64,000 nt of DNA, from assembly GCA_944386985.1 (NCBI GenBank), contig CALXDD010000012.1, positions 153 through 64,152 of the forward strand, read 5' to 3'. The position numbers were made by a program, and so were the translations under genes. How positions within the stretch are numbered: position 1 is the stretch's first letter; each line of letters starts with the position of its first letter. This stretch comes from an uncultured Oscillospiraceae bacterium. Its GTDB lineage: Bacteria; Bacillota; Clostridia; Oscillospirales; Oscillospiraceae. Under the pieces are notes generated by a model that saw nothing but the letters and a program-made list of their open reading frames with translations, did no database searches and was not told where the DNA came from. Shown in pieces: positions 7,852 to 59,371 of this stretch.

Positions 7852-9076
7852 TATATTCCCGGCCGAAAACTGAAAATTTCTTAAATTCTCGTAATTCTTA
7901 ACAGCAACACATGTCTCTGATAGAAAAACGAAAATCACCGTTCCTCTCCCCCGTCAAAGCTGTTTTTTCTGCCGGTTCAAAGCCGTATCGGATGACCAGA
8001 CTGATGAATTTATATCCATCACTGTGGAATGGTAATAAGATTTCACTATGAGAAACTATGCAGACATTCCGCAGGAGCGGCGCACAGGGAAATCCCCTGC
8101 TTTGAATCTTCCAGCACAGCAAGCTAAGCCGCGCTTCCATATTCTGGAAGACTCTTTCCTTTTGGGATACATTTTTTCGAAAAATACAGAAAAATTGTGC
8201 GGATTTTGGAAAAATGGAACTTCATCGAAGCAGAGCAGCCGGGCCTTCCGGAAGCGCCGCGCCTGCGGCGGAGGCAGGGACGGGATCGGAAACGGCAGAG
8301 GAGCACTGGAGAAAGCACTGCATGAAACGTCTCTTTGCGTATTCCTGTCCTCAGGCATGGGGATTTTGCTCGATACAGGAATACAGCCGGAATTTGGGCG
8401 GCGCATTTCCTGTTGTGTCGGATAAGGAGGTATGGCTGGAAACGGAAGAATGCTCAGATCATTGCAAAGATACGTCAGCGCGGCTGAAACGATATTTTAT
8501 AGATGAACCCAACAGATTTTATGCAGATACATTTAGAAAAGTCCTATTCAACGGCTTTGAGCCCCCATACCGCCCCGGCATTTGCGATCCCGCCAAATTC
8601 AGTAAGCGGCGCTACAGGATGCGGAATCTGCCTCCTGACTTTTTAGACCATGACCAGCCATTTTAAGTCTTATCCTATACAGATGACGTATTCTCATGGG
8701 GCGGCGAAGCCCAAACCCGTATATTATACGCGGACGCTTCTTACCTTTATTATAAATAGGTATCGCTTCCTTTGAATCAAAAATTGCGGTGGTGAAATCC
8801 GGAAACACCTCCGCACCCCCCTCTTTGCCTATGTCCTCATCGGCGGCATTTTCCGGAACATGGACGCCAATCCGGAGGAGGCGGGCACGGTATGCGCCAG
8901 CAGTACGGCGCCCCTCTCTATGTCTATCATCGCCTATGGAGGTCTGATCGGCAAAATCATCCGTAAAACGCAGCCGTGTGCAGATCATGCGGGTGACTGC
9001 GTTTTTGCCGCAGGCAGAAAAGTCCTCCATTGCATCCGGAAATTCCGGCTTCAATGGGGGACTTCTTCTTGCGCCT

Positions 9077-53051: not shown

Positions 53052-55190
53052 TCAGAGCTCAACATCCTCAATCAAATAGGCTACCTTCTGATAGGCCGCA
53101 CTTTGCTTCAACGCCGCTACCGCAGGGTCGTTAGAGGGGTATTGCACCAAAATGGCGCGGACATTTTTTGCCAATGCCAAAAGTTCAGGCGACACTTGTT
53201 GCTGCATCTCTTTTTTTTCGTACTCCACCAAAAATGTCACAAAAGCTTTCATTTGAGGAGCAGCGCGAAGGGCCGAACGAAGGGAACGAATATACGCAGC
53301 CTTGTCTCCTTGTATCTGTAACGAACGAGCTGTCAGATAGATTAACGAAAACTTGTCGATTTCGTTGAGCGCACAGCAGGCACCTTGACAAGCCAGCACT
53401 TCCGGAGCGTAACAGTGGTTCAGAAAGTTCTCTGCCGTATTCGAATAAGCTTCACTTAGCAAAAGAGCGGTCTCTGAGTCTGAAAAATTCTTTTTTTGCA
53501 TCAGCGCTGCCGCCAGCATCCAATAGAGCATCTGAATCTGGGACAGAGAATCAAGGTCAATTTTCTCCTTTTGCGAGAGGATCAGTGAAGCAAAATCTTC
53601 ACACATTTCCGCCAATGTCAGGGCGGTTGTCTGCAGCCATTTTACGCTCTGTTGCGCCATACTGTCTGGGAATATGGCCCCATATTTCAATGCATGGGCC
53701 AACGCCTGGGGCGGAAATGCATCCCAGTCCTCTACCTCAGACAAAAACTTACTAATCTCTTTATCATCAGAAGCCGCCATTACTTTTGCCGCCAGCCCGA
53801 AGGAGCCCGGTGACATCAATAAAATCCGCCATGCTTCTTCCGGCTCATCCGCTGATTCCGCCTTTTTGCTTGAGAATAGCACCTGACAAATTGCCTGGAA
53901 AGCATCGCGCTGCCTTTTTTCCCACGCAGAAACCTCTGCATTCATATAGTTCGCGTCGATTGTATGCACCATCTGTGCCATAAGCTCCTGTGCATTAGGG
54001 TTGTCTTTGTGCAGAATAAGCGCTTTGACCCAGTCCTGAATACTTTCTCCCGGTACTTGATGAATAGGCCAGTCAGCCAGCATGTCCAGCGACTTTTTTG
54101 ATTTTCCTATTTTCTCCAGGGCAATCGAAGCAATGGCTTTCACCTTAAAGCTGTGTGTAATATCTGCCGCACCCAAAACGCTGGTTGCCGACTCTAAAAC
54201 GGGCACGTCCTTTTTCTGATATTGCGTAAACGTCCGCAGATACTTTTTGGTCAATTCCGGCAGCCTGTCATAGTGTTTGCGCTCATATTCCAGCAAAATC
54301 TCGGCAAATGTTGTATCCAGTTTGGTCGCTATGTGGGTAGGATAATGTTCTTTACTCCACCGAATCCACTCCTCTGCCTGGGGCAATTGCAGCACTGTCC
54401 CAAATAGGGCGCAGTGGGCAGCAAGACCGGGTGCGCTGACACTTTGAAGGACATTCTGATCCGCATGCTGCAATACCTGAGCACTCTGTACCACATACGC
54501 AGCCCGCCTGTTGGGAAATCTGCTGGAGGATTCTATACACTGGCCCAAACGGGTCAAGTCATCTGGGTGCTGCTCCAGTTCCTTATCCAGCAAGTCCAGA
54601 TTGCGCCTTGCCTTGGCCTCCTGGGCTTCAGGCGACTCCAATGCATAGCCGTCATGGTGCAGAATGATTCCCGGCAAACATCCTATCAGCTCCGCAGTAA
54701 GCTGGCGTCCGTTTTTGCTGAAAACCTCATGAATGGTTCCCCTATAACGAATGCCAATCCCCAGCCGCGCCATTCTCAATACCAAAAAATCGGAGCATAC
54801 GCCCTCCTGCATCTCAGGAGTCAGGTAATTGCGCACTGTAATAAGGCAGGTATCCGGCCAGCTGGATTCCGGTTCACAAAACAGGCATCGCAGTTCATCA
54901 ATATTGGGGTCCAAATATTCGTCGGCATCTATGGCTAAATACCATTTTCCGCTACAGCGCTCCATTACAGCATTTCGCGCTGCGGAAAAGTCGTTGACCC
55001 ACGGAAAATCAAACAAAATATCCGCATACTGTTCCGCTATCTCCCGGGTACCATCCGTGGAACCGGTATCGGCAATTACCAGTTCACAAGAAATGGCCTT
55101 CCGTAAGGGCTGAAGAGCTTTCATGCATTTTTCAATGCATCGAATCTCATTTTTTACAATCATGCCAATGGAGAGGACAGGGGATTCCAT
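53052..55190 (-). CDS. Family-2 glycosyltransferase with a long helical (TPR-like) C-terminal region; candidate flagellin glycosyltransferase
   Basis: 712 aa. N-terminal GT2 motifs LSIGMIVKNE..., ADTGSTDGT, DADE. First gene downstream of the flagellin. Confidence 0.85.
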   Translation of the reverse strand: MESPVLSIGMIVKNEIRCIEKCMKALQPLRKAISCELVIADTGSTDGTREIAEQYADILFDFPWVNDFSAARNAVMERCSGKWYLAIDADEYLDPNIDELRCLFCEPESSWPDTCLITVRNYLTPEMQEGVCSDFLVLRMARLGIGIRYRGTIHEVFSKNGRQLTAELIGCLPGIILHHDGYALESPEAQEAKARRNLDLLDKELEQHPDDLTRLGQCIESSSRFPNRRAAYVVQSAQVLQHADQNVLQSVSAPGLAAHCALFGTVLQLPQAEEWIRWSKEHYPTHIATKLDTTFAEILLEYERKHYDRLPELTKKYLRTFTQYQKKDVPVLESATSVLGAADITHSFKVKAIASIALEKIGKSKKSLDMLADWPIHQVPGESIQDWVKALILHKDNPNAQELMAQMVHTIDANYMNAEVSAWEKRQRDAFQAICQVLFSSKKAESADEPEEAWRILLMSPGSFGLAAKVMAASDDKEISKFLSEVEDWDAFPPQALAHALKYGAIFPDSMAQQSVKWLQTTALTLAEMCEDFASLILSQKEKIDLDSLSQIQMLYWMLAAALMQKKNFSDSETALLLSEAYSNTAENFLNHCYAPEVLACQGACCALNEIDKFSLIYLTARSLQIQGDKAAYIRSLRSALRAAPQMKAFVTFLVEYEKKEMQQQVSPELLALAKNVRAILVQYPSNDPAVAALKQSAAYQKVAYLIEDVEL

Positions 55191-55285: not shown

Positions 55286-55330
55286 GCCATCTGCCATATA
55301 GTCCGTTGATTCGTAATGCGGTCAATAGGC

Positions 55331-56143
55331 TTACTGCAGCAGCTGCAGCACACCCTGAGGCACCGCGTTGGCCTGGGCCAGCATGGCCTGGGCAGACTGG
55401 ATGAGAATATTGTTCTTGGTGTAGGCCATCATCTCTTCGGCAACGTCGGTGTCGCGGATGGTGGACTCGGCGTCCTGAATGTTCTCGGTCATGACGCCCA
55501 GGTTGTTGATGGTATGCTCCAAACGGTTCTGGACGGCGCCCAGTTTGCCACGGATGGTGGAAACCGACTTTATCGCGGCATTGATGGTGCTGATTGCAGC
55601 CTGAGCACCGGTCTGAGTGCTGATATTCAGCTTGCTGATACTCAAAGAAGAGGTGCTCAACTGACCCACAGTAACGGTGAGACGGTTTACGGCGTTGTTC
55701 GTCTCGCCGATCTGGAAGGTGATGCCGGCGGTGGTGAACATATTCTGGCCGTTAAAATTGCTGGCGCTGCCGATACGATTGATTTCTTTTAACAGAGCGG
55801 TTACCTCTTCCTGCAGGCTGTCACGGTCGGTCTTCTCATAAGTGCCGTTAGCGGACTGGGTGGCCAGCTCCACCATACGGTTGAGCATATCGTGGACCTC
55901 GGTCAGGGCGCCTTCAGCGGTCTGCACCAGGGAGATACCGTCCTTGGCGTTGTCCTGAGCCTTCTCCAGGCCGGTGATCTGAGCGCGCATCTTCTCGCTG
56001 ATGGCCAGACCGGCGGCGTCATCACCGGCGCGGTTGATCTTGTAGCCGGAGGACAGCTTCTCCAGATTCTTGCTCAGAGCGCTGGTGTTGGTGTTGTAGT
56101 TACGGTAGGCGTTCATCGCCATGATGTTGTGTTGAATCCTCAT
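55331..56143 (-). CDS. fliC: Flagellin (short, D0/D1-only type)
   Basis: 270 aa. N-terminus MRIQHNIMAMNAYRNYNTNTSALSKNLEKLSSGYKINRAGDDAAGLAISEKMR. C-terminus LAQANAVPQGVLQLLQ. The centre is Ser/Thr-rich. Confidence 0.97.
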   Translation of the reverse strand: MRIQHNIMAMNAYRNYNTNTSALSKNLEKLSSGYKINRAGDDAAGLAISEKMRAQITGLEKAQDNAKDGISLVQTAEGALTEVHDMLNRMVELATQSANGTYEKTDRDSLQEEVTALLKEINRIGSASNFNGQNMFTTAGITFQIGETNNAVNRLTVTVGQLSTSSLSISKLNISTQTGAQAAISTINAAIKSVSTIRGKLGAVQNRLEHTINNLGVMTENIQDAESTIRDTDVAEEMMAYTKNNILIQSAQAMLAQANAVPQGVLQLLQ

Positions 56144-56149
56144 TTTAAT

Positions 56150-56320
56150 TGCTTCCTTTCAATATAAAATGGCTGTTTTTAGAGGAGTGCTGCGTTGCGC
56201 CTCAATTTCCTTATTTCAGCGCATCTGGTTTGGCGCGTTCAAAGCCGGACTCCGTGGCCTTTGTCATCCGGCCTCTCCCGCACGGTTTATCTATTCCAAC
56301 CGGCTCGCGAGGCCGGATGA
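56150..56320 (-). promoter_or_regulatory. Flagellin leader and promoter region
   Basis: Minus strand reads TAAA, 13 nt, GCCGGATGA, an imperfect match to the sigma-D/sigma-28 consensus TAAA-N15-GCCGATAA. A 12-bp perfect inverted repeat TCATCCGGCCTC (56264-56275) / GAGGCCGGATGA (56309-56320) competes with the hairpin CCGGC..GCCGG (56300-56316). Two A(N)GGA motifs are present (56207-56212 and, in the SD, 56153-56157). Confidence 0.4.
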
Positions 56321-56344
56321 AATCAAAACAAAAAATAATATTAT

Positions 56345-56620
56345 GCTGAGTGGACTGCCCGGAGGCACCGGGCTTCGGGCGCGTCTCCCGTCCTCTCGGC
56401 GGGGGAGTAGCCCTCTGTTCTTCCCACCCGGCGGCTTTTGGGGGAAGCGCCAACCGAACCGGCAAACGCTTTTGCCGGTCAGGTCAGCACTCCCCGGCCG
56501 CACCCATGGGCATTCACCGGCGTCCCGACCGGCATAGCAAGGGGAAATCGGCAGGCTCAGGCGACGCCCGCCTGCTGATCAAAGGCCGCAAGGCCAAAGT
56601 CCCGGATATTCCGGGCGGTA
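56345..56620 (-). ncRNA. Candidate omega-RNA / guide-RNA scaffold of the TnpB-like gene
   Basis: About 200 nt of GC-rich, hairpin-dense sequence follows the tnpB-like stop (for example CCGGCAAA-agcg-TTTGCCGG and GCCCGG-tgcct-CCGGGC). It ends abruptly at about 56350, where AT-rich sequence begins. The assignment rests only on this position, which is where TnpB-family omega RNAs lie. Confidence 0.3.
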
Positions 56621-57723
56621 TTTTCATCGCGGTTCAGCTGCTCTCCGCAGTGGGGGCATACCCAGGTTCTGCGGCGCGCCGGCAGCTTCTCATTCACACA
56701 GCCGCAGGCGTGGCAGGTCCTGGCAGCGGGGAGATAGGGGTCTACATCGATGTACTGCTTGCCCTGCTCCTCCAGCTTGTAGCGCAGGAACTCCCGGAAC
56801 ATGCCGAAGCCGGAGTCCAGCACGTTTCCGCCCTCGAGGCGCTGGGCCATCACATTCAGGTCGGCCCCCCGCACACACACGGCGTCCCAGGCGTTGGCTA
56901 TCCGCCTGCTCTGCTGGTGCGCGAAGTCCCGGCGCTGGTTTGCGATATGCTCATACTGGAGCCGGACTTTCTGAAGCTGCTTTTCGTAGTTTCCGGAGCC
57001 CCTCTGCATCCGGGAGAGCTTGCTTTGCATCCGGGCCAGCTTCTCTCTGGCGGCCGCCATCTGCGGCGGGATCTCCGGACTGCCGCCGCTGCTGTCTACA
57101 TAGAAATGGGCCATGGAGTAATTGAGGCCCACAGTCCGCTGAGGGGTTGGGACGACAGGCTCCGGAATCTCGGTCTCATATCCGAAGGCCATGGAACAGA
57201 AATACTTTCCGGTTTTTGTCTTGGTGATGGTCACAGACCGCAGCGACCACCAGTGCAGAGGCTTCCTGTACAGCTTCACCTTGAGCAGCCCCAGCTTGGG
57301 CATCTGCAATCCCGCGCCGGTGAGGCGCAGGGACGGCCCGGTGTGATAGGGGCGGCTGTAAACGGTAAAGGAGTCCTTGCGTGCCTTCTTGGTCTTGGGC
57401 CTGGGGTACTGGAAAACCCTCGGGTTTCGGAAAAAATCCAGAAAAGCTTTGCGCAGGCTCTGGTGCACCGCACAGAGGGCCTGACTGTCCACCTCCTTGA
57501 GGAAGGGGGCGCCCTTTTTGTACCGGGCGGGGGTAGGGATATAGTGGACGTCCGTGGCCGCATAGAACTCCTGAACGTCAGAGAGCATCTGATTCCAGAG
57601 GTAGCGGCAGCAGCCAAAGGTTTTTTCCATCAGCTCCGCCTGCTCCGGCGTGGGGTAGACGGGAACCTTGAGGACGGTATATCGGACGGTTTTGGCGGGA
57701 CTCTCTTTGGGTTTGCTTGGCAT
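56557..57723 (-). CDS. tnpB: TnpB-like (IS605 OrfB family) protein with substituted RuvC catalytic residues
   Basis: Start trimmed to MPSKPKESPAKTVRY. 388 aa. OrfB hallmarks: TFGCCRYLWNQ, LKEVDSQAL, zinc ribbon CHACG..CPHCG, and RDENTARNI. RuvC-I reads VGLN (Asn201 where Asp is expected). RuvC-II reads VCVRGADLNV (no Glu). The RuvC-III Asp366 is retained. Confidence 0.9.
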   Translation of the reverse strand: MPSKPKESPAKTVRYTVLKVPVYPTPEQAELMEKTFGCCRYLWNQMLSDVQEFYAATDVHYIPTPARYKKGAPFLKEVDSQALCAVHQSLRKAFLDFFRNPRVFQYPRPKTKKARKDSFTVYSRPYHTGPSLRLTGAGLQMPKLGLLKVKLYRKPLHWWSLRSVTITKTKTGKYFCSMAFGYETEIPEPVVPTPQRTVGLNYSMAHFYVDSSGGSPEIPPQMAAAREKLARMQSKLSRMQRGSGNYEKQLQKVRLQYEHIANQRRDFAHQQSRRIANAWDAVCVRGADLNVMAQRLEGGNVLDSGFGMFREFLRYKLEEQGKQYIDVDPYLPAARTCHACGCVNEKLPARRRTWVCPHCGEQLNRDENTARNIRDFGLAAFDQQAGVA

Positions 57724-57831
57724 CTCCGTCCGCGCTCCTTTCCTTCTGCTTCGGGTCTCCGTCTCCGGCCCGCCGGCAATCACGTTCCCCCGCGTCTGAC
57801 AGGAGGCAGTCAAAAACTCATGTGCAATGGA

Positions 57832-58305
57832 TCAGGCCCCGGTCTGTTCATGGCGGGCCGTATTCTCCTGAGCGCTGCCGCTTTGGGCGGCCTCTATGGC
57901 GGCGAATCTGCCGCACAGGGCTTTCAGCTTTTCCTGTACCCCTGCGCTTCCATGCGCTGCCATCCACTCGTCCAGATGATCCGCAACCTCCGCCAGCTCC
58001 CGCAGCGTCTCTTCTCTTTCTTCCGCTGCGCTTTGGCGCTGCCGTTCACGCTCGGCTTTCTCTTCCAGCCGCTCCGCGTGACGTTTCGCGTCGTATCTGC
58101 GCCTGGCCATACTTTTCGGCCGCTTTTCCAGCAGGCCGTCCGGACGTTCGCCCGAGCGCTCGTGAACCTCGCCCCGGAGAACGGAAACCTCCCTGGGAGC
58201 CTTCACCGACACGCAAAAAGCCGAGCCGGACTGCTTGAACACCTGCACGGTGATGTCCTCCCCGATGGTGAGGTACTCGCCGGATTTCAGTTGCAGCGAG
58301 AGCAT
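57832..58305 (-). CDS. CsrA-like RNA-binding protein with a ~95-aa charged, helical C-terminal extension
   Basis: Start trimmed to MLSLQLKSGEYLTIGEDITVQVFKQSGSAFCVSVKAPREVSVLRGEVHER, which matches the CsrA pattern ML.L.R..GE...IGD.I.V.V......V.IGI.AP..V.V.R.E. Strong RBS GAAGGAGA. 157 aa versus about 70-75 aa for canonical CsrA. Confidence 0.8.
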   Translation of the reverse strand: MLSLQLKSGEYLTIGEDITVQVFKQSGSAFCVSVKAPREVSVLRGEVHERSGERPDGLLEKRPKSMARRRYDAKRHAERLEEKAERERQRQSAAEEREETLRELAEVADHLDEWMAAHGSAGVQEKLKALCGRFAAIEAAQSGSAQENTARHEQTGA

Positions 58306-58360
58306 AAAAGTCTCCTTCTCCAGCCGGGCGCTTCCCTGCGCCGTGCGGGTTTGCGCTTGT

Positions 58361-58492
58361 GTAGGTTTACAAATACACTTTTTCAAACTGCCTTCACTAT
58401 TTCTTTCGGCTGAATTTTTAGAAAATTAAGGTCTCTGACAGAATTTTTTTATTCGCCTGATCAGTTTGTAAACCTACACTTTTTCAAACTGC
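58361..58492. repeat. Inverted and direct repeat array between the recombinase and the CsrA-like gene
   Basis: Perfect 13-bp inverted repeat: GTAGGTTTACAAA (58361-58373) / TTTGTAAACCTAC (58465-58477). Perfect 18-bp direct repeat TACACTTTTTCAAACTGC at 58374-58391 and 58475-58492. Confidence 0.9.
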
Positions 58493-59122
<630 letters not shown>

Positions 59123-59371
59123 TCATAGGCAAATCTCCTAACTTTTTAGTTTACAATAAAATAATCTCCCGTTCCTACCCACCAGGTTCCTGCCCGGGAA
59201 GAAGAAACGGGAGGCTGATCCAATTTTGAACGCCGGAAAAGCGGGCTTTCGCCGCCTGCAGAAGCGCCCATGAATCCCTCCGCTGCATACCGCCGGCTGA
59301 AAAAGATCCCTGTGGAAAGCAATCTGTCTGAGCCGTGTTTTGAGTTTCCGCGAAAAGTCATTTTCTACAGC

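Follow-up and report, generated by a model that had tools for sequence, protein, structure and literature searches.

The window analysed here is a stretch of 64,000 nucleotides from contig CALXDD010000012.1 (assembly GCA_944386985.1) of an uncultured Oscillospiraceae bacterium. Its minus strand carries, in this order, a hin-like invertase gene, a 121-bp promoter inverton, a csrA-like gene, a gene for a TnpB-like protein of 388 aa (tldR, 56557-57723), a structured GC-rich spacer and a flagellin gene. The csrA-like gene ends 108 bp before tldR and the flagellin gene starts 413 bp after it, so that tldR lies less than 3 kb from both, as Walker, Richard et al. 2026 (PMC13418256) stipulate for csrA-associated TldRs. 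The hin-inverton-csrA-tldR-fliC order also matches that described in section 11 of the same paper and by Wiegand 2023 (PMC10705468). Our subject is the GC-rich non-coding stretch of about 200 nt between tldR and the flagellin gene, which we consider to be the probable guide RNA of the TldR protein.

The 388-aa protein contains the Pfam domains HTH_OrfB_IS605 (PF12323), OrfB_IS605 (PF01385) and Cas12f1-like_TNB (PF07282), and has the TnpB architecture of helix-turn-helix (HTH)/WED, RuvC and zinc-finger TNB parts. It scores 229 bits against the NCBIfam model guided_TnpB (cut-off 100), and residues 13-380 align with ISDra2 TnpB (PDB 8h1j) with an E-value of 2e-37. In this alignment, using ISDra2 numbering, D191 is replaced by N (VGLNYS) and E278 by R (CVRGADL), while D361 is kept (NRDEN). 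Because two of the three RuvC catalytic residues are gone, the protein is classed as a TldR, that is, a nuclease-dead relative of TnpB (Wiegand et al., PMC10705468), and not a transposon nuclease. Among 19 members of the clade, at 56-99% identity, N201 is invariant and R285 nearly so. With the published Isp and Osp TldRs (Walker 2026) the window TldR shares 53% and 54% identity, and the Osp homologue has N, R and E at the three RuvC positions (Walker 2026 Table S2, PMC13418256).

A protein search with the window TldR yielded 3056 relatives at E <= 1e-30, and a genome scan yielded 80 loci, nearly all of them from Oscillospiraceae and designated below by L and a number. The closest, at 84-86% identity, are from Ca. 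Flavonifractor merdavium, Flavonifractor sp. An306 (L003) and an Intestinimonas metagenome-assembled genome; the L001 and L003 species are 86% identical in protein. With 86% as the best match, the species of the window is not represented among the genomes scanned. Three of the loci are from Oscillibacter sp. 1-3, and the DNA downstream of tldR in one of these (L053) is identical to the guide RNA insert of the Walker plasmid pSL6741, which was used for RNA immunoprecipitation sequencing (RIP-seq). A flagellin starting MRIQHNI is encoded downstream at nearly all loci. The window locus is itself present at 99-100% identity in several gut metagenome assemblies (ENA and Logan), among them ENA ERZ28614402, in which scaffold ONAT22-1...scaffold_385 is 100% identical over 55301-59150 of the window, and strains L101 and L102 are 99% identical to it.

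The initial annotation treated this locus as a TnpB system with its guide lying just beyond the end of the element. The corresponding alternative is that an active IS200/IS605 (or IS607) transposon ends here, the spacer being its omega-RNA and right end; TnpB would then cut the empty donor site so that the element is restored, and the guide would simply be the insertion flank. The protein does score as a TnpB family member, the RNA is placed where omega-RNAs sit, and a serine recombinase gene is present 0.8 kb upstream. However, two of the three RuvC residues are replaced and the replacements are fixed across the clade; the catalytic domain of the recombinase is N-terminal, a Hin/Gin-like arrangement unlike that of IS607 TnpA, and the inverton and csrA separate the recombinase gene from tldR; and no Y1 transposase open reading frame (ORF) is present among the neighbouring ORFs, no explicit search for transposon ends having been made. 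The csrA-tldR-fliC neighbourhood moreover recurs over 80 loci in many species, and the flank is the same flagellin-like 15-mer across species rather than a random insertion site. The transposon context is thus lost, and we regard the alternative as extremely unlikely. There is no element end any more, because a nuclease-dead TldR (D191 to N, E278 to R) sits in a fixed csrA-fliC neighbourhood. An active IS200/IS605 TnpB transposon was rejected as a candidate on two grounds, the RuvC triad not being intact and there being no associated TnpA.

The guide RNA scaffold extends from 56538 to 56350 on the minus strand, as delimited by a covariance model and by covariation. It comprises a first hairpin, H1 (56533-56516); a long-range CCCA/UGGG helix enclosing a long stem-loop of 55 nt and about 24 bp (56495-56441) with the apex CCGGCAAA/TTTGCCGG; the conserved element GGUGGGAAGAA; H4 (56413-56377); a terminal GCCCGG/CCGGGC hairpin (56373-56357); and the invariant 3' tail GUCCAC (GTCCAC in the DNA, 56355-56350). 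The short perfect hairpins that the initial annotation had picked out on this strand are real, being the apex of the long stem-loop and the terminal hairpin, and its placing of a TnpB-type scaffold downstream of the ORF is borne out. So is the abrupt change to AT-rich sequence that it had reported near 56350: the G+C fraction falls from 0.72 (56350-56449) to 0.49 (56250-56349), and the 29 nt following 56350 include five G or C residues (17%), as against 69% for the scaffold. The boundary in composition falls exactly after the invariant GTCCAC. When folded, a 321-nt stretch gives -147.5 kcal/mol (z = -3.86), and none of 100 shuffled sequences is as good.

The regions downstream of tldR at 81 loci were compared by anchored extraction, a whole-region MAFFT alignment being too gappy. 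Common to them are a CCGG-N-CGGGAC-N-CCGG hairpin, GAAUGCCCAUG, a long stem-loop of variable sequence, GGUGGGAA, a GGGC...GCCC helix, a terminal hairpin after GAAGCC, and the invariant GUCCAC. In L008 an insertion of about 170 nt (approximately 7863-8040) with the inverted repeats GCCTGTTTCATATCTC and GAGATATGAAACAGGC at its ends splits the terminal hairpin, with the GTCCAC tail and the guide resuming beyond it. In L007, L010, L017 and L048 a similar motif, CGCTGTTTCATA, comes after the stop codon of tldR.

Covariation was evaluated in a MAFFT alignment of 54 related scaffolds, with pairs called by RNAalifold and counts compared with slid controls and 500 shuffles. RNAalifold predicts 29 pairs, of which 23 have compensatory double changes, and the long stem (helix 2) is among those that covary. 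Paired cells make up 92.5% of the total (33-48% in the slid controls) and double-change cells number 226 (47-76 in the controls), values that were reached in none of the 500 shuffles by any measure. A covariance model (R1) was built from 17 scaffolds of guide class C (defined below) only, including the Oscillibacter RNAs (L053, RIP-seq) and leaving out the window and its subclade. It finds a single match in the window, full length, at 56538-56349 on the minus strand (64.3 bits, E = 2e-15), and in each of the 80 loci it finds one copy and no more, on the plus strand and immediately behind tldR. Strains that are 99% identical to the window differ by five changes in the scaffold: these affect the linker before H1, the loop of the terminal hairpin, and one position within H1 where G-U and A-U wobble.

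Directly 3' of GTCCAC lies the guide, TCAGCATAATATTAT (56349-56335, minus strand), of about 15 nt and with a 3' end accurate to within 1-2 nt. It reads as codons 3-8 of a flagellin gene, AT[T CAG CAT AAT ATT AT]G. The initial annotation had expected a guide of 16-20 nt within 56350-56325; the position agrees, and the length found is about 15 nt. It had also reasoned that an AT-rich flank varying freely among strains, with no target co-varying, would tell against a guide. Instead, conservation over the first 15 nt of this flank exceeds that of much of the scaffold. No base of the guide is changed in L101 and L102, the 99%-identical strains, or in L003, and L001 has a single difference, at position 13. 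In the 31 loci with guides of the same register as the window, positions 1-15 are conserved at 65-100%, and position 16 at only 32%.

In 66 of the 81 loci GTCCA(C/A) is followed by sequence resembling a flagellin ORF start (ATG MGN ATY CAR CAY AAY ATH ATG), and it does so in three registers. Class A guides (10 loci; G AGA ATT CAA CAT AAT) start at the G of the ATG, class B guides (31 loci including the window; T CAG CAT AAT ATT AT) start after the AT of codon 3, and class C guides (25 loci including Oscillibacter; AAT ATT ATG ACG ATG A) start at codon 6. Counted from the start of the flagellin ORF, the registers begin at nucleotides 3, 9 and 16 and tile the first ten codons, and in all three the dinucleotide AT stands directly before the protospacer, which suggests a target-adjacent motif (TAM) ending in AT.

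In L032, 24 nt of flagellin ORF follow GTCCAC (TCAGCATAATATTATGACTATGAA, QHNIMTMN; approximately 8389-8412), compared with the usual 15-16 nt. This sequence bridges the registers of classes B and C, a hint that the source of the guides was a flagellin 5' end encoding Met-Thr-Met.

The likeness to a flagellin 5' end raises the question of whether the scaffold and guide are the functionless, decaying relic of an old insertion into a flagellin gene. Such a relic would account for a guide that looks like a fossil flagellin start, for the 24 nt retained in L032, and for the window containing no detectable target. It does not sit well with an ORF that is intact in thousands of proteins at 56-99% identity, with helices that stay paired through compensatory changes, or with a 15-mer that is conserved when the sequence directly following it is not; homologues, furthermore, bind guide RNA and DNA (Walker 2026, PMC13418256). 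We consider a relic very unlikely.

The 64-kb window contains one flagellin gene, the tldR-linked gene at 55331-56143 on the minus strand (270 aa, Pfam Flagellin_N and Flagellin_C). Its start, ATGAGGATTCAACACAACATCATG (ATT CAA CAC AAC ATC ATG), departs from the guide at four positions (4, 7, 10 and 13 of the guide), all of them synonymous changes at codon third positions. Across the loci, guides differ from their own linked flagellin genes at three to five positions, and 80 of the 97 such mismatches in class B are at codon third positions. As a class, the tldR-linked flagellin genes appear to be poor targets, in agreement with the report that it is flagellin genes not associated with tldR that are targeted (Walker 2026 preprint). 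As to size, the 270-aa protein consists of the N- and C-terminal helical domains with the variable domain almost absent; the flagellins at the orthologous loci L001 and L003 are of 591 and 539 aa, and the family ranges from 213 to 1047 aa.

Better matches to the guides are found elsewhere. The guide of L024 matches the L054 flagellin gene of the same genome perfectly, with AGAAT directly before the protospacer, and there are same-genome pairs with one mismatch, L011 with L034, and L053 with L040, the latter being in Oscillibacter sp. 1-3, the tested Osp system. A metagenome scan for ATGMGNATTCAGCATAATATTATG recovered 20 flagellin gene starts with an exact protospacer, of which 17 are on GC-rich contigs and encode N-terminal domains about 80% identical to that of the window flagellin; where these genes are complete the products are long (567-798 aa). 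Seven of the 20 starts have a TldR scaffold just upstream. Exact protospacers for TCAGCATAATATTAT thus exist in flagellin genes of related bacteria. The initial annotation had suggested flagellar promoters as places to look for targets; flagellin genes are indeed matched, although the predicted target is the first codons of the ORF and not a promoter.

CsrA favours GGA motifs in hairpin loops, and because of this preference a hairpin in the flagellin leader, GGCC-GGAUGACAAA-GGCC (56256-56273, minus strand), with GGA in its loop, is taken as a candidate CsrA-binding site. It is kept in L001 and L003. A second GGA is present in the Shine-Dalgarno region of the flagellin gene (GAAAGGAAG). The csrA-like gene (57832-58305, minus strand) encodes a 157-aa product consisting of a CsrA domain (Pfam CsrA, E 5e-13) and a charged C-terminal extension; this product shares 45% identity with the CsrA published as the partner of IspTldR.

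It could be asked whether the RNA acts mainly in cis, as a flagellin mRNA leader or processing signal, or titrates CsrA, instead of guiding a protein to DNA. Its position is on the strand of both csrA-tldR and the flagellin gene, in the interval between them, which contains no strong terminator; it has several conserved GGA-containing elements (the CGGGAC loop and GGUGGGAAGAA), and the CsrA-like hairpin follows in the flagellin leader. Yet in many loci it is csrA rather than flagellin that follows the RNA, so that tldR is its constant partner; a flagellin-identical 15-mer in three registers is left unexplained; and the RNA of the Oscillibacter homologue is bound by TldR and required for DNA targeting. 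A principal role in cis or in CsrA titration seems to us very unlikely, though the RNA may have such a role secondarily.

Upstream, an AT-rich intergenic region separates csrA from the hin-like gene (58493-59101, minus strand), whose 202-aa product matches the Pfam Resolvase N-terminal catalytic domain over residues 4-147 (E 1.5e-29) and has weak NCBIfam matches to DNA invertase and XisF models. Next to this gene is the 121-bp invertible promoter segment (58359-58479, minus strand), bounded by 15-bp inverted repeats, GTGTAGGTTTACAAA (58479-58465) and TTTGTAAACCTACAC (58373-58359). In a comparison between species, the segment is reversed in L003 relative to the window and L001, with an identity of 84% in reverse orientation versus 70.6% forward. 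The features of a Hin-type promoter inverton are present, namely flanking inverted repeats, both orientations across loci, and an adjoining serine invertase. Within the segment a sigma-D/FliA-like sequence, TTAA-N15-GCCGAAAG (58429-58403), faces csrA in the window orientation, and is a putative FliA/sigma-D-type promoter driving transcription towards csrA. The inverted repeats each share 5 nt at their outer end with an 18-nt direct repeat, GCAGTTTGAAAAAGTGTA (GTGTA at 58479-58475; TGTA at 58377-58374 plus T at 58373). Invertons downstream of hin have been reported, and a promoter inverton of about 120 bp together with hin is present upstream of most loci (Walker 2026, PMC13418256, section 11). 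Since no terminator-like site was scored on the minus strand between 56050 and 58600, that is, from csrA to the flagellin gene start, the guide RNA would most simply be part of a phase-variable csrA-tldR transcript.

We propose that the RNA encoded by 56538-56335 on the minus strand serves as guide for a TldR of the csrA-associated kind (a TnpB that is domesticated and nuclease-dead) within a phase-variable flagellin isoform switch, and we put the probability of this reading at about 0.8. The RNA would probably be made within a csrA-tldR transcript starting at the invertible FliA-type promoter beside hin, and its scaffold of about 190 nt would bind TldR. RNase III may cleave the long stem-loop and so give a two-part guide, as in the Oscillibacter homologue. 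The 15 nt after GUCCAC (UCAGCAUAAUAUUAU) would then pair with the start of another flagellin gene, AT followed by TCAGCATAATATTAT, at codons 3-8 (MRIQHNIM), where TldR on the flagellin ORF would form a transcription roadblock, and the co-encoded CsrA would act on flagellin mRNA leaders. The linked flagellin gene would escape because four synonymous third-position changes, one of them at guide position 4, break the match. Overall, the cell would change its flagellin isoform by phase variation.

Several observations weigh against this proposal. In the 64-kb window the guide has no other match: a 20-mer with up to three mismatches, a 14-mer with up to two and a 12-mer with up to one each find only themselves, as the initial annotation had already noted of this flank. 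A T-run that it had suggested might end the transcript does follow the guide (T5-G-T4-G at 56334-56324, the T5-G-T4 part at 56334-56325), and T-runs are also found after the guide in some loci (L003, L011, L024 and L052) and not in all; no canonical intrinsic terminator was detected after the guide on the minus strand. In some same-genome class C pairs it is AC, not AT, that precedes the protospacer. The class A guide of L034, GAGAATTCAACATAAT, matches the start of its own adjacent flagellin gene (at about 5617) at 16 of 16 positions, an apparent case of self-targeting. Mismatches of class B guides to their own flagellin genes (mean 3.46) are no more numerous than those to flagellin genes of other genomes (3.81), and the idea that self-avoidance is tuned at each locus was rejected on these figures; self-avoidance appears to be a property of the class. 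Finally, Rfam 15 contains no relevant family for the scaffold at gathering score in the whole window, and a permissive scan of 56100-56900 gave only chance-level matches (E 2.6 or higher). The scan with omega-RNA covariance models that the initial annotation had recommended thus finds no matching Rfam family, whereas a model built from related loci works, and covariation among related loci, the lack of which it had named as refuting, is present. Because no curated family appears to cover the scaffold, the Rfam result is no argument against the assignment. The published account also contains the phrase 'downstream region dispensable', which could be read as including the guide, and which we take as an apparent conflict only.

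A more tentative extension, which we regard as possible though doubtful, is that the guides are fossils of flagellin 5' ends, and that the system in the window forms a phase-variable operon in which the minimal 270-aa flagellin is on and a long form silenced, the two being told apart only by synonymous codons. Fossil guides may have arisen from IS605-like ancestors that inserted into flagellin ORFs at TAM-like sites, or recombination with flagellin genes may have shifted their register. Immediately after the flagellin gene, 53052-55190 on the minus strand encodes a protein of 712 aa that carries a family 2 glycosyltransferase domain at its N terminus and may be a flagellin-modifying enzyme; it is conserved at this place in strains L101 and L103.

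The window system is a further example of the RNA-guided flagellin switch published for gut Clostridia, a family described between 2023 and 2026. In csrA-associated TldR systems the guide RNAs are directed at sites within the ORFs of alternative flagellin genes, the Oscillibacter guide RNA is split in two by RNase III at the distal end of the expanded stem-loop, and RNA-guided DNA binding with repression has been demonstrated in TldR homologues (Walker 2026, PMC13418256). With those of Oscillibacter sp. 1-3, Flavonifractor plautii and relatives (PMC10705468, PMC13418256), the window system shares the protein clade (53-54% identity; RuvC sites 1 and 2 are occupied by N and R); csrA and fliC as partners, with hin and an inverton of about 120 bp upstream; a homologous scaffold that includes the expanded stem-loop; and a guide complementary to the 5' part of a flagellin ORF. 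It differs from the tested Oscillibacter locus in its order (csrA-tldR-guide RNA-fliC, whereas the Oscillibacter csrA comes after the guide RNA), in its guide register (codons 3-8, class B, versus Osp codons 6-10, class C), and in the third RuvC residue (D versus E in Osp). Its linked flagellin, at 270 aa, is unusually short compared with those of csrA-associated TldR systems. According to the authors who described the family, the guide RNAs 'could not be predicted bioinformatically' (bioRxiv version of Walker). New here are the scaffold and guide boundaries at the level of single bases, a working covariance model, the three-register pattern of the guides, and the synonymous-codon basis proposed for the escape of the linked flagellin gene. 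The model found the scaffold in all 80 related loci and is reusable, and metagenomes can be searched for guides and their likely targets by the simple rule of a GTCCAC tail followed by flagellin codons. The three registers offer a handle both on the TAM and on the origin of the guides, and for the locus itself there follows a testable prediction as to the flagellin isoform that the ON state of the invertible promoter would silence. The finding adds an uncultured Flavonifractor-like gut bacterium to the few organisms in which a transposon nuclease has given rise to an RNA-guided transcription factor.

The TAM of ISDra2 TnpB, TTGAT, is short and ends in AT. This parallels the AT found before the protospacers in all three registers of the TldR family. 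ISDra2 TnpB and its omega/reRNA (PDB 8h1j, 8exa) resemble the window system further in that the proteins are related (E 2e-37), the RNA lies at or after the 3' end of the gene, and the guide is directly 3' of the scaffold. ISDra2 TnpB is, however, an active nuclease in a transposon with TnpA, and its guide is the flank of the element, whereas the window protein has a dead site, no transposon, and a guide fixed on flagellin. The fliC_P-associated TldR of the Enterobacter prophage FR-phi (Wiegand 2024; Walker 2026) is likewise a nuclease-dead TnpB relative with an adjacent guide RNA, and it silences one flagellin gene while its linked flagellin is expressed, much as we propose for the window; it is phage-borne, belongs to a separate clade, is often truncated at the C terminus, and is without a csrA partner or inverton.

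A functional parallel outside the TnpB family is the Hin/fljBA system of Salmonella, in which an invertible promoter beside a serine invertase drives a flagellin gene together with a repressor of the alternative flagellin, the repressor being the protein FljA. In the window, the place of FljA would be taken by an RNA-guided DNA-binding protein plus CsrA, a parallel with Salmonella that is also cited by Walker 2026.

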